A stretch of DNA of 46,517 nucleotides from an uncultured bacterium (GTDB taxonomy: Bacteria > Patescibacteriota > Minisyncoccia > Phycocordibacterales > UBA6065): contig CBIMES010000002.1 in the NCBI GenBank assembly GCA_966243015.1, forward strand, positions 1-46,517, read 5' to 3'. Below are positions 5,890 through 18,744 of this stretch, piece by piece; position 1 is the stretch's first letter; each line of letters opens with the position of its first letter. Both the position numbers and the translations under genes were made by a program. A model generated the notes under the pieces. The model ran no database searches. It had not been told where the DNA came from and saw only the letters and a list, made by a program, of their open reading frames with translations.

Positions 5890-7116
5890 TTATTCATACC
5901 TCAGGGCCTCGATAGGGTTCAGCCTCGCCGCCCGTCGCGCGGGATAGTACCCAAAGACGATTCCGATGAATGCGGAGACGCCGAAGGCCATACCGACAGA
6001 CCCGAGCGATATCGACGTCGAGAGCACTCCCGTCGCGCTTATGCCGAAAGAGACAATCGCGCCGAGCAGGACGCCAATGGTTCCGCCGGTCACAGTGAGG
6101 ACAATTGCCTCGAGAAGGAACTGCTTGCTGATGTCGGCGCCCTTTGCGCCGATCGCCTTGCGGAGGCCGATCTCGCGCGTTCGCTCCGTGACCGTGGTAA
6201 GCATCATGTTCATGATGCCGATACCTCCCACGACAAGCGAGATTCCCGCCACCGCGCCGAGGAGGATGGTAAAGGTATCGGTAATACTCGAAGCGGTCTC
6301 GACAATGTCGTTCTGGTTCAGGATGCTGAAGTCGGCCTTTGCGGGATCCGTGATCTTGTGACGCGAAAGGAGGATGGCCGTGACCTCGGCCTGGGCAAGG
6401 GCCATGACTGAGGCGTCCTTTGCCTGAATGCTGATCGAGCTGACGTGATCGCCTCCCGAGAGGAACTGCTGGGCGCTCGTGAGTGGTATGAAAATGGTGT
6501 CGTCCGCATTACTGAAGCCCGAGCCGCCTTTTGCTGCGGTAACGCCGATGACCGTGAACTCCATGCCGTTGATGCGCACGGTCTTCCCCACCGCCGAGGC
6601 GTTCTCGCCGAACAGGTCGTCGCGGGCACTCGGGCCAAGCACGGCGACCTTCGCCTTGGTCCTGAGATGCTGGTCGGAGACGAAGGCGCCCTCGGCGACC
6701 TTCACGTTGCGCACCGCCGGATAGTCGGGGGTCGTGCCCACGACCGAGGTGTTTGTGTTCGTGCCCTTCGCCACGACCTGATAGCGGCCGGATACCTCGG
6801 CTGTGACCGCCTGCGCGCCCGACACGCCATCGGCGAGGGCCAGGGCGTCATCGTAGGTCAGAGTCCTTGTCGATCCGCTCGCCATTCTCACCTGATAGCC
6901 GCCCGCGCCGGTCTGCGCGCCCGGCGACACCATGATGAGGTTCGCGCCGATAGACTGAATGTTTGACTCAATGGTCTTTTGGGCGCCCTGTCCAATGGAC
7001 ACCATGGCTATCACCGAGCTGATGCCGATGATGATGCCGAGCATGGTGAGCCCGGTGCGAACCTTGTTCGCCGACAGGGCCGAGTACGTCTCGTGAAGCA
7101 TGTCGAGTGTGTTCAT
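5890..7116 (-). CDS. MacB-like ABC transporter permease
   Basis: LTMLGIIIGI, GGIGIMNMML..V.ERTREIGLRKAIGA, PIEALRYE. Confidence 0.92.
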   Translation of the reverse strand: MNTLDMLHETYSALSANKVRTGLTMLGIIIGISSVIAMVSIGQGAQKTIESNIQSIGANLIMVSPGAQTGAGGYQVRMASGSTRTLTYDDALALADGVSGAQAVTAEVSGRYQVVAKGTNTNTSVVGTTPDYPAVRNVKVAEGAFVSDQHLRTKAKVAVLGPSARDDLFGENASAVGKTVRINGMEFTVIGVTAAKGGSGFSNADDTIFIPLTSAQQFLSGGDHVSSISIQAKDASVMALAQAEVTAILLSRHKITDPAKADFSILNQNDIVETASSITDTFTILLGAVAGISLVVGGIGIMNMMLTTVTERTREIGLRKAIGAKGADISKQFLLEAIVLTVTGGTIGVLLGAIVSFGISATGVLSTSISLGSVGMAFGVSAFIGIVFGYYPARRAARLNPIEALRYE

Positions 7117-7128
7117 GGTGCGTGGTGG

Positions 7129-7830
7129 TTAGCTCGCCGACCGCCTCTCGTGATGCGAGGTGTCAGAGACAATCTGCCCGTCCTTGATAAAGATGATGCG
7201 GTCAGCGTGCTCGGCGACGTCATGCTCGTGGGTGATGAGAATGATGGTTCTGCCATACTCGCGATTGAGCCTCTGGAAGGTGCCGAGGACAATCTGACCC
7301 GTCTTCGAGTCGAGGTTTCCCGTCGGCTCGTCCGCGAGAATGATCGAAGGGTCGTTCACGAGCGCGCGGGCGATGGCCACGCGCTGGATCTGGCCTCCCG
7401 AAAGCTGATTGGAAAGATGATGGAAATGGCTCTCCACCATGCCCGCCGAGAGCAAAGCCTCCCTCGCCCGCGACTTACGTTCCTCGTCGCTCGCGCCCGC
7501 GTAGATGAGCGGGAGCATGACGTTGCGCAGCACCGTCGTGCGAGGCAGGAGGTTGAAGGCCTGGAAGACGAAGCCGATATTCTGGCGCCTCATATCGGCG
7601 AGCTCGTCGTCGGCCAGTTTCGACACGTCTTTGCCGTCGAGGAAATACGATCCCGACGTCGGGGTGTCGAGCGCGCCGAGGATGTGCATGAGCGTGGACT
7701 TTCCCGACCCCGAAGGCCCCATGATGGCCACAAACTCGCCGTCGCGCACGCTGAAGCTCACGCCCTTGAGCGCCTGAAACGCGGCCGCGCCGCTGTCGTA
7801 GGTCTTCGTGACGTTCTTGATTTCTATCAT
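7129..7830 (-). CDS. MacB/LolD-family ABC ATP-binding protein
   Basis: [25 protein letters not shown]. Confidence 0.93.
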
Positions 7831-14936: not shown

Positions 14937-15806
14937 CTAGAGACCCCTCTCCGCCTCGATGAAGGCGTCGAGGTCGCCCTCGAGGACAGCATCGACGTTC
15001 GAGGTCTCCACCTCGGTCCTGTGGTCCTTGACCATCTTGTACGGATGCACGACGTAGGAGCGAATCTGATTGCCCCACTCGATGTCTGTGGTCTTGGAAA
15101 TATACATGCCTCGCTCCTTTGACCTCTGCTCATCCTGCTTCAGCTTGTAGAGCTTGGCCTGAAGGATATCCATGGCCTGGGCGCGGTTGTCCGCCTGAGA
15201 GCGCTCTGAATCGACGTGCACCGATATCTTGGTCGGTATGTGAATGAGGCGCACGGCAGTCTCGCGCTTGTTGACGTTCTGTCCGCCGGGACCGGATGAC
15301 CTGGCAAACTCCACGCGAAGCTCCTCGGGAGGAATGGAAACAAAGGTGAACTTCTCGAACTTCGGAATCACCTCGACGAGAGAGAACGAGGTATGCCTCT
15401 GCTTCTTGGCGTTGAAGGGCGAGATGCGGACGAGCCTATGCACGCCTGACTCGTTCTTGAGCGTGCCGTACGCGTTCTTGCCCGCGAGCTCGAGGGTGAC
15501 GTTGCGATAGCCGCCCCGCTCGTTCTTGTTCTGATGTATAAAGGTCACCCCCCACCCCTTTCGCGCCGCGTACTTGAGGTACATGTCGAGGAGAATGCGC
15601 GAGAAGTCCTCGGCGTCATCTCCGCCCGCCCCAGAGAATATGGTCATGACCGCGTTGCCGCGCTCGTACTTCTCAGTCTCGGCAAGAGCCGACTTGAGGT
15701 CATTGAGCTCGCGAAGTATATTCTGGGCCTTTTCCTTGCTCTCCCAGAAGGAGGCGTCGCTCATGAGATTCTCGATCTCCTCGATTCGTTTTCGCGGATC
15801 GTTCAT
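14937..15806 (-). CDS. prfB: Peptide chain release factor 2, short form
   Basis: GVHRLVRISPF (SPF), RHTSF, GPGGQNVNK, WGNQIRSY. Confidence 0.92.
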   Translation of the reverse strand: MNDPRKRIEEIENLMSDASFWESKEKAQNILRELNDLKSALAETEKYERGNAVMTIFSGAGGDDAEDFSRILLDMYLKYAARKGWGVTFIHQNKNERGGYRNVTLELAGKNAYGTLKNESGVHRLVRISPFNAKKQRHTSFSLVEVIPKFEKFTFVSIPPEELRVEFARSSGPGGQNVNKRETAVRLIHIPTKISVHVDSERSQADNRAQAMDILQAKLYKLKQDEQRSKERGMYISKTTDIEWGNQIRSYVVHPYKMVKDHRTEVETSNVDAVLEGDLDAFIEAERGL

Positions 15807-15807
15807 G

Positions 15808-15880
15808 AGCCACTTCCCGGGATCGAACCGGGGACCTCTACTTTACGAAAGTATTGCTCTACCAGCTGAGCTAAAGTGGC
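15808..15880 (-). tRNA. tRNA-Thr(CGT)
   Basis: Cloverleaf with GCCACTT/AAGTGGC acceptor, TT-CGT-AA loop, TTCGATC T-loop; CCA not encoded. Confidence 0.93.
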
Positions 15881-15899
15881 AGGTACCCTCCACTGTCTG

Positions 15900-16146
15900 A
15901 GCCAACGTCCGGGATCGAACCGGAGACCTCGTCATTCGTTTACACCTCACCTTGCGGGAGGACTAGACTGTATCTTTCTCCTGTTGCGAGGAGACCCTTG
16001 TCAGTCGTTCGGGCGCTGGGCGCCACGGTCTTAACCCAGAGGGTCTTTAACCGTTATTCGGGATTCACTGAGGCGTTACCGCCCCAGTGGGCAGGGTTTC
16101 TTACGAACCCACCAATGACGTGCTCTACCGACTGAGCTACGTTGGC
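15900..16146 (-). tRNA. tRNA-Thr(GGT), intron-containing (exons 16146-16111 and 15936-15900)
   Basis: Joined exons give a canonical 73-nt cloverleaf: GCCAACG/CGTTGGC acceptor, CGTCA-TT-GGT-AA-TGACG anticodon arm. Confidence 0.93.
15937..16110 (-). ncRNA. Group I self-splicing intron, 174 nt, inserted at tRNA position 36/37
   Basis: 5' exon ends in U, intron ends in G; P1 with U.G, P2 with GTAA loop, P4 ACGGT/ACCGT, P7 GACTG/CAGTC, S-element AAGATACAGTCT, P8, P9 with GCAA loop. Confidence 0.9.
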
Positions 16147-16187
16147 TTATTGCTGTTCCAAAAGAACGCCTCACAAGAATAGACTAT

Positions 16188-16781
16188 TCAGCGAATTTTA
16201 TCAATCATCTCACACATTTTCTCCTTTAATCTGACATTATTAAAGTAAACGATAACAACCCCGTGCTGGGACTTATTACGATACGTCCCAGGGCCCCTTA
16301 CGCGAGAAACCACCGGTTTATAGAACTGATCAAGGCCCACGGAAAGCTCATTAGCCCAATATCTAAGGGCTATTTCTGGATTCAAATCCTCAAACACCTG
16401 AACACTGAATCTTAGTCTCGATTTCTCGACCCCGCACATCCTTTCAAGGAATTCCATGAATTTCCTTACGAGGTGAGGATCGGTGTTGGTAAGCCTCATT
16501 CCGCCCCTGCCCCTCTTCAACCCCTCGCCCCAATACAAGCCAAGGCCCAAACCAAGCAATAAACTATCGTCCTGATTCCTTGGCTCTTTTATCAAGAATG
16601 GGTCACCCGAAGGATTTTTAAGCCTGTAAACAGCCTCGGAAATAGACCTCTTTTTGATACCGTGCTTTTCAAGCCAGTAATTGACTTTATTATTCGAACA
16701 ATTCAAAACGCCAGCGATCTGTGATGCTGACAGACCGCCTTCGACATAAAGGTGATTCAGTTCTTTGAACGAAATTTCCAC
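16188..16781 (-). CDS. HTH plus LAGLIDADG-like (homing endonuclease-fold) protein
   Basis: N-terminal LSASQIAGVLNCS..V.YWL HTH; LLGLGLGLYWGEG motif followed by RLTNTDP.LV..F..FL; visibly AT-richer than flanks. Confidence 0.65.
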   Translation of the reverse strand: MEISFKELNHLYVEGGLSASQIAGVLNCSNNKVNYWLEKHGIKKRSISEAVYRLKNPSGDPFLIKEPRNQDDSLLLGLGLGLYWGEGLKRGRGGMRLTNTDPHLVRKFMEFLERMCGVEKSRLRFSVQVFEDLNPEIALRYWANELSVGLDQFYKPVVSRVRGPGTYRNKSQHGVVIVYFNNVRLKEKMCEMIDKIR

Positions 16782-17656: not shown

Positions 17657-17727
17657 AGGGCTTATATACTTACACAGCTATGCCGTGTACGCAACCATTT
17701 AAGCACGAAACGCCTAAAAAATCACGG

Positions 17728-17801
17728 TGTCGGCGGGAGGGATCGAACCTCCGACCTTGGGCTTATGAGTCCCACGCTCTAACCAACTGAGCTACGCCGA
17801 C
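17728..17801 (-). tRNA. tRNA with CAT anticodon (elongator Met or Ile2)
   Basis: Paired G1-C72 (GTCGGCG/CGCCGAC), CT-CAT-AA loop; Met versus Ile2 not resolvable by eye. Confidence 0.85.
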
Positions 17802-18665: not shown

Positions 18666-18673
18666 GTTACGTG

Positions 18674-18744
18674 TTGCGGGGGGTGGAATTGAACCACCTC
18701 CTACAGGTTATGAGCCTGTCGAGCTACCGGTGCTCTACCCCGCT
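18674..18744 (-). tRNA. Initiator tRNA-fMet(CAT)
   Basis: 1:72 mismatch (AGCGGGG/CCCCGCA), GAGC/GCTC D-stem of initiator type, CT-CAT-AA loop. Confidence 0.85.

Follow-up and report, generated by a model that had tools for sequence, protein, structure and literature searches.

Introduction

The pre-tRNA-Ile(CAU) of Azoarcus carries a group I intron of subgroup IC3 that is 205 nucleotides (nt) long. In tRNA-Leu(UAA), a group I intron interrupts the gene within the anticodon, and group I introns in phage genes are well documented. The element considered here is a 174-nt insert in a tRNA-Thr(GGU) gene of an uncultured bacterium of the Patescibacteria, contained in a 46,517-nt stretch of its genome (contig CBIMES010000002.1; this whole stretch is called the window below). 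Very probably it is a group I intron and is spliced, along the group I pathway, out of the only tRNA-Thr(GGU) gene of the genome. Like the Azoarcus intron, it is compact, lies in the anticodon loop of a bacterial tRNA and has no open reading frame (ORF), and the insertion point right after the third anticodon base is presumably the same in both.

The differences from the Azoarcus intron, which is compared here by description only, include a Thr(GGU) host with the guide GCC rather than a guide that pairs with CAU. They also include the size, which is 174 nt in the window and 171-246 nt in the family to which the insert belongs, and the fact that RF00028, the Rfam model of group I introns, is blind to the threonine intron. 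The classical bacterial tRNAs with group I introns in the anticodon loop are Leu(UAA), fMet, Ile(CAU) and Arg(CCU) (PMC8450103, PMC5733544); these are other hosts, and Thr(GGU) is unnamed in the excerpts of those reports. Group I introns in tRNAs of the candidate phyla radiation (CPR) are mentioned in passing in an excerpt of another (PMC8172020). Thr(GGU) is named as a group I intron host in no paper found in the literature searched, and a 2025 preprint on tRNA group I introns of Patescibacteria, known here through its citation in PMC12641178, may cover the family.

The split tRNA-Thr(GGU) gene

The gene runs from 16146 to 15900 on the minus strand of the window, and the coordinates of all its parts refer to that strand. 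The 36-nt 5' exon (16146..16111) holds tRNA positions 1-36, with the acceptor, the D arm, the anticodon stem and the loop as far as ...UUGGU, and ends at the anticodon GGU (...TTGGT in the DNA). The 174-nt insert (16110..15937) follows U36, at position 36/37, and its last base is G. The 3' exon (15936..15900) holds tRNA positions 37-73 and begins AATGACG, or AAUGACG in the RNA. Since the flanking bases differ at each junction, the boundaries between exons and insert are fixed and cannot slide; the first-pass annotation, made from the letters of the window, had placed the insert at this point, after U36 and ending in G. The only ORFs in the insert are small chance ones on the opposite strand.

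With its intron search switched on, ARAGORN reports the gene as tRNA-Thr(ggt) i(37,174) at c[15899,16146]. At default settings it misses the gene, as does the Rfam tRNA model, which is what had been predicted of standard tRNA callers. Joined by their coordinates, the two exons are called as tRNA-Thr(ggt), and this joined sequence is an exact match, over 73/73 nt, to the uninterrupted genes at five (L020-L024) of the 16 loci without an intron that were examined. The expectation that removal of 15937-16110 would restore a canonical tRNA is therefore borne out by five natural genes. The 36-nt 5' exon taken alone is 100% identical to the uninterrupted genes of five genomes of the same genus (G002, G003, G005, G007 and G011).

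Anatomy of the insert

The structure of the insert could be examined with the help of its relatives. In total, 86 distinct copies were collected, all of them in tRNA-Thr(GGU) at position 36/37, 171-246 nt long and mostly from Patescibacteria (CPR). They make up alignment A2, from which four duplicates had been removed beforehand; locus L045 was excluded from alignment A3. Without any prior structure, RNAalifold recovers the tRNA arms together with P1, P2, P4, P5, P6, P7, P8 and P9 from 14 homologues. These are the helices P1, P2 and P4-P9 that had been drawn by eye in the first-pass annotation, and their covariation was then counted on all 86 sequences, with an explicit group I structure that was written by hand and includes the P3/P7 pseudoknot and P9.0. 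In this structure, 95.3% of cells are paired, and the share falls to 33-43% once the partners are shifted by 1-3 columns. Double changes are seen at 45 of the 72 pairs, and the observed values were reached by none of 500 shuffles; the helix pairing is far above the chance level. The single-sequence minimum free energy has a z-score of -3.7.

Starting from the 5' splice site, P1 is formed by the exon bases G34, G35 and U36 plus the first two intron bases (16109..16113), opposite a strand (16090..16094) that contains the internal guide sequence GCC (16092..16090). Its G-C, G-C and U·G pairs, the last of them at the splice site, are invariant (86/86), and the two extension pairs covary, with GU in 41 copies, AU in 29, UA in 9 and GC in 6 at the first and GC in 47 and AU in 32 at the second. 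P2 (16066..16089) has 10 base pairs (bp), compensatory changes at 10/10 of them and a GUAA tetraloop, L2 (16079..16076). P3 had been described as imperfect, and it consists of only 3 bp. Its 5' strand CCC (16060..16062) is 100% paired to an invariant GGG (15995..15997) in a pseudoknot with P7, with one-sided changes from C to U in five cells and no covariation.

The next segment (16025..16054) comprises P4 (6 bp) around J4/5, P5 (5 bp, with a 3-nt loop) and J5/4. P4 is invariant save for one one-sided change, and P5 shows double changes at 4/5 pairs. P6 (16012..16024), of 5 bp with a 3-nt loop, has double changes at 4/5 pairs as well, for example from GG..CC to CC..GG, AG..CU or UC..GA. The 5' strand of P7, GACUG (16002..16006), is invariant, its GACU agrees with the RF00028 consensus, and it pairs with CAGUC (15966..15970). 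By analogy with described group I introns, G 16006 and C 15966 are the candidate guanosine-binding pair. P8 (15977..15994) is a plain 6-bp helix with double changes at 6/6 pairs, and J8/7 (AAGAUA, 15971..15976) is nearly invariant.

At the 3' end, P9 (15945..15961) carries a GCAA tetraloop, L9 (15955..15952), and has double changes at 4/4 counted pairs. P9.0 is formed by GU in J7/9 (15962..15963) and AC (15938..15939), the two bases that precede the terminal G. It is paired in 98.3% of cells, with GC 51, AU 28, GU 5 and UA 1 at one pair and CG 42, UA 36 and UG 6 at the other. The terminal guanosine (omega-G, 15937) marks the 3' splice site. It is G in 89/89 parsed family members, and in all 89 the 5' exon ends in GGT. 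The minimal P9 hairpins of the family come in two unrelated forms (A2 columns 314-352), CCUCCCGCAAGG..GAGG in the window and CCCUUAGGUAACUAUGGG in L060, L064 and L079, so size reduction seemingly took place more than once. Longer copies have in common an internal loop rich in AUAA/GAAA in the P9 region.

One feature of the family reaches beyond secondary structure. Nearly every copy has a GNRA loop as L2, and the type of this loop tracks the form of P8. When L2 is GAAA, P8 starts with NNGCU and contains an asymmetric CUAAR...UAUG-like motif in 36/38 copies; when L2 is GYRA, as in the window with its GUAA, the receptor-like 'GCU..' form of P8 is found in 0/44 copies and a plain helix in 44/44. 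The association has a Fisher value of 3e-21, in which independence is overstated since the sequences are related. We take the P8 motif to resemble the 11-nt GAAA receptor. According to an excerpt of PMC2813881, the Azoarcus intron bears GNRA tetraloops on both P2 and P9, whose receptors lie in P5 and P8, and the layout is therefore the same. The two introns are alike in that both L2 and L9 are GNRA loops in the threonine intron and L2 covaries with P8, and they differ in that the window copy has GUAA and GCAA loops with plain helices, not GAAA loops with elaborate receptors.

Relationship to recognised group I introns

Besides the demonstrated anatomy, conservation, covariation and exact restoration of the tRNA, the insert has a demonstrated homology to recognised group I introns. 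The first sign of it is in the core itself, as the J8/7-P7 stretch AAGAUACAGUC departs from the RF00028 consensus AAGAUAUAGUC at one of 11 bases, and this single difference is compensated by a change from A to G on the other strand of P7. The second is a bridge between models. A covariance model of the family core, R1, whose E-values are rough, aligns full-length and in register to two other tRNA introns that RF00028 recognises as well.

The first of these bridging introns lies in genome G078, beside the Thr(GGU) intron of that genome. It is a 192-nt insert at position 37 of a tRNA-Tyr(GUA) gene according to ARAGORN (L162:1748-2022, with the intron listed as L162:1792-2002), and it scores 23.4 bits with R1 (E 7.5e-7) and 47.0 bits with RF00028 (E 6e-10). 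The second, in genome G086, is a 502-nt insert in a tRNA gene at L167:1107-1683 (Asn gtt in ARAGORN, a label left unchecked), and it scores 24.8 bits with R1 (E 2.7e-7) and 42.5 bits with RF00028 (E 1e-8). Both share with the threonine intron the phylum, a tRNA host and the core layout. They nonetheless form a separate family, at 23-25 bits with R1 compared to 113-139 bits for the threonine copies, and their P7 is GACUA/UAGUC rather than GACUG/CAGUC. In the tRNA cluster of G078, the tyrosine intron is a group I intron additional to the threonine one and different from it; its 47.0 bits fall just below the 50-bit cut-off of RF00028. Within the L167 intron lies a 105-aa ORF whose Cys/His motifs look HNH-like by eye and which has no Pfam match.

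A number of points weigh against reading the insert as a group I intron. The most direct is RF00028 itself, a match to which had been proposed as a check. The model gives no match to the insert at its gathering cut-off (50 bits) on the window, nor at E<=10 in the 701 nt of 15700-16400, and there is none at E<=1 on seven homologue loci and on L036 (a rejected tRNA-Pro call, described below), nor to the insert in a genome-wide search. The model does work in the same genome, where it finds, outside the window, a stretch inside the 23S rRNA gene (G000:C4:14797-15019, or L157:1501-1723; 36.8 bits, E 2.5e-8) that is likely an rRNA group I intron below the threshold. R1 barely touches this candidate, at 9.0 bits.

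Other points concern the alignment. Covariation is silent on the catalytic core, as P3, P4 and P7 are 100% paired, yet invariant or with one-sided changes only. P3 is just 3 bp, and for 72 of the 86 sequences the search pattern itself imposed P7 and the 3' strand of P3. Because the sequences are kin, their independence is overstated in both the shuffle test and the Fisher test. The tentative placement in subgroup IC3 is by analogy, resting on the GNRA loops L2 and L9, and the candidate guanosine-binding pair is assigned by analogy as well.

The RF00028 miss is judged to be a false negative of the model because R1 and RF00028 recognise the same bridging introns. The threonine intron resembles the RF00028 consensus in its J8/7-P7 sequence, in GACU and in helix order, and differs from it in giving no match at any threshold tried; we judge the miss to reflect the limited sensitivity of a single operational model and not the failure of a class-defining feature. 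It is outweighed because of the agreement in J8/7-P7, the R1 bridge to RF00028-positive introns and the phage relatives described below.

A probable course of splicing

The chemistry of the intron and its splicing unaided are inferred here from the established group I mechanism. Transcription would give a 247-nt precursor in which P1 arises from pairing of the guide GCC with the anticodon GGU and puts the U·G wobble at the 5' splice site. Round P7 the P3-P9 core would fold, braced by the GNRA loops on P2 and P9, with L2 docked on P8. Once bound at P7, at a site put at G 16006-C 15966 by analogy, a free guanosine would attack after U36, and P9.0 would swap the terminal G (15937) into the guanosine site. 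The freed 3'-OH of U36 would then attack after the terminal G, so that U36 is joined to A37 and a normal 73-nt tRNA results. P10 would have at most 1-2 bp in the Thr(GGU) intron, so the anticodon stem probably holds the 3' exon in place.

It is conceivable, if on balance unlikely, that the RNA has the group I fold but is so pared down that it needs a protein helper in the cell. This would be a sub-case of group I splicing and does not exclude it. The intron is very small, its P3 has 3 bp and its peripheral loops are minimal, and many group I introns depend on cofactors. The bI3 intron with Mrs1 is an example, given in an excerpt of PMC2813881. On the other hand, the GC-rich helices and the two GNRA loops resemble the self-folding design of the Azoarcus intron. 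The hosts of the family also differ widely, comprising many CPR lineages, a Bacteroidota genome and phage, which argues against a dedicated host cofactor.

The need for the tRNA and the remaining alternatives

The role of the gene in the cell can be judged from the genome, which has 730,383 bp in four contigs, 57% G+C and a completeness of 99.86%. ARAGORN finds three threonine tRNAs in it, namely CGU (15807-15880), UGU (G000:C1:417180-417253) and the split GGU gene, and no others. The first-pass annotation had asked if this is the only Thr(GGT) gene of the genome, and it is; a second is found neither by ARAGORN nor with a pattern built for the anticodon arm of an uninterrupted Thr(GGU) gene. 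Across 232 ORFs with 350 codons or more, ACC makes up 51.1% and ACU 11.4% of threonine codons, together 62%. With this codon use and no second Thr(GGU) gene, the cell therefore needs the split tRNA.

A decaying pseudogene with a dead intron remnant, its ACC and ACU codons being read by tRNA-Thr(UGU) via relaxed wobble, is very improbable. Small genomes can economise on tRNAs, the tRNA-Thr(UGU) gene is present and the spliced RNA has not been observed, all of which would suit a pseudogene. Its exons, however, match intact genes of relatives at 100% identity, and ACC alone accounts for 51% of threonine codons. Moreover, the 86 distinct copies keep every helix, largely via compensatory changes, and the U·G at the splice site and the terminal G are invariant, a pattern of purifying selection on the fold.

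The least credible alternative, hardly worth entertaining, is an archaeal-type bulge-helix-bulge intron removed by protein or another insertion such as a miniature mobile element, for although RF00028 gives no match and the intron mode of ARAGORN was built for protein-spliced introns, the tRNA-splicing endonuclease (PF01974) has no matches in the 99.86% complete genome in a search that was positive in four archaea as a control, the insert sits at 36/37 and not at the usual 37/38, a mobile repeat would not be expected as the single copy seen in the genome, the helix order, P9.0, terminal G, U·G and J8/7-P7 sequence all fit group I, and the family model cross-matches RF00028-positive introns.

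The genome holds some further tRNA calls of note. ARAGORN calls a tRNA with the anticodon UUA outside the window (G000:C2:160272-160345), which would read the stop codon UAA; the anticodon stem of its cloverleaf contains a single C·A mismatch. Despite this call there is no recoding of the genome, since TAA still terminates 106 of 292 long open frames. A tRNA-Ile(UAU) is called at G000:C2:51595-51669, also outside the window, and two tRNAs with CAU anticodons lie within it (17726-17801 and 18673-18744). A tRNA-Pro(ggg) with a 1398-nt intron (G000:C1:447705-449199; L036) was rejected as a false positive of the intron mode. Two ordinary ORFs, of 245 and 280 aa, lie across the called region on the opposite strand, and Rfam gives no match there.

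Next to the split gene, on the same strand, lies tRNA-Thr(CGU) (15807..15880), and this Thr(GGU)-Thr(CGU) tandem is kept in intron-bearing and intron-less relatives. About 30 nt upstream of the 5' end of the tRNA there is a promoter-like site, TTGATA-17-TATTCT (16176..16204, minus strand). It is a weak candidate, since a scan by consensus only found two such sites where 0.6 were expected.

A family of compact introns

The proposal of a group I intron in tRNA-Thr(GGT) at 36/37 is supported, though not as a one-off. A scan of a species collection with the core pattern matched at least 120 stretches. The 80 loci taken from these are nearly all from metagenome-assembled genomes (MAGs) of Patescibacteria/CPR, belonging to many named lineages, with the addition of Niastella populi and a Pedobacter MAG. 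Four of the 80 (L038, L058, L091 and L093), at locus edges, were dropped; the other 76 parse, and all 76 have threonine exons ending in TGGT. The labels His, Arg, Pro, Leu and Phe that ARAGORN gives to some family members are mis-parses. The intron of the window had also been proposed as an exceptionally small ribozyme. At 174 nt it is indeed the second smallest among the 89 parsed genes, whose inserts measure 171-246 nt, and one copy, at 171 nt, is smaller still (L099 was not parsed automatically for size).

Among 61 related genomes searched by BLAST, the full split gene is found in 14, that of the window included, and abutting exon halves are found in many others. For 16 Thr(GGU) genes that stand in the same tandem with Thr(CGU), ARAGORN confirms that they are uninterrupted. 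In the window's own genus, 8 of 22 genomes have the intron, 11 have an empty site and 3 give no match. Intron and empty site are thus mixed within one genus, which means that gain or loss of the element was both recent and precise. Identities to G000, the genome of the window, are 81-94% in genomes of the same genus and 77-84% in those of other families; the two ranges overlap, which is suggestive only.

R1 gives the intron core of the window 134.8 bits and finds one copy in its genome. In an even sample of the phylum it matches 9 of 150 other genomes. Eight of the matches are strong (113-139 bits), all with Thr(GGU) exons, and the one weak match is a different intron. Outside the phylum, the cultured bacterium Niastella populi CCTCC AB 208238 (Bacteroidota) has a 181-nt member in a Thr(GGU) gene that scores 138.8 bits (G211:C2:13232-13371, NZ_LWBP01000002.1; L082/L168). 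The same genome also has an uninterrupted Thr(GGU)-like gene (G211:C199:3322-3341), and none of 80 other sampled genomes of its family has a match. The copy looks like one that was horizontally acquired.

Relatives in phage genes

Close relatives of the threonine intron are found in phage contigs, with R1 scores of 95-119 bits. One of them, a 188-nt copy (L172:3099-3286; IMGVR_UViG_3300002917_000010), lies after codon 5 of a gene for a phage major head protein, which matches phrog_9953 (E 2.3e-46) except at the 12 initial positions of the profile. The guide of this intron, GUCCG, pairs with the exon CGGAU. In another contig, three copies of 196, 190 and 184 nt interrupt one gene (L174:6274-6469, 6746-6935 and 7569-7752; IMGVR_UViG_3300020570_000137), and an identical segment is present in L176. 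This gene belongs to the head module, lies between portal and tail genes and has no match in PHROG or Pfam, none by tblastn in phages and no similarity to the head protein of L172. The guides of its three introns, GGCC, GCCC and GCCC, stand opposite exon ends GGUU, GGGU and GGU, and the U·G is kept in the P1 of each phage copy. The guide thus changes along with its exon, as is expected of a working P1.

The reading frames of the phage genes fit the predicted splice sites. Excision at U and G leaves open frames of 320 aa in the first gene and 440 aa in the second, with no internal stops, while without splicing the L174 frame meets a stop at codon 41. Among three adjacent U's at the first intron of L174, the choice was made with the help of the reading frame. 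Three other viral loci (L171, L173 and L175) were set aside as chance partial pattern matches in coding DNA that cover model positions 68-113 only (25.1 bits).

The window copy differs from introns in phage structural genes in that it sits in a cellular tRNA gene. The 5' exons end in TTGGT in the tRNA and in TTGGTT, GGGGGT and CTTGGT in the L174 gene. One could tentatively propose, as a possibility that falls short of being probable, that the 171-177-nt forms are the smallest natural self-splicing group I ribozymes, and that the family, without a homing endonuclease, moves between phage head genes and the Thr(GGU) anticodon loop via reverse splicing or recombination at short sites ending in GGU. 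No description of an intron family common to tRNA genes and phage protein genes was found in the literature searched.

Significance

Four features make the family stand out, namely its size (171-177 nt in the smallest forms compared to the 205 nt of the Azoarcus intron), the blind spot of tRNA and intron models, the co-variation of L2 and P8 and the link to phages. The blind spot has practical consequences. A tRNA that reads 62% of the threonine codons of its genome is invisible to default tRNA callers and to the Rfam group I model. The same is true of many genomes of Patescibacteria, in which calls of a "missing tRNA-Thr(GGU)" may be artefacts.

With 86 or more distinct natural sequences, the family also supplies material on a very compact group I ribozyme (171-246 nt) for the study of folding and structure and for engineering, and it contains a natural swap between GAAA/receptor and GYRA/helix contacts. 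Finally, it is an intron family free of endonucleases that is common to a cellular tRNA gene of many CPR lineages, one cultured Bacteroidota genome and the head genes of phages. With it, mobility without a homing endonuclease becomes directly testable.

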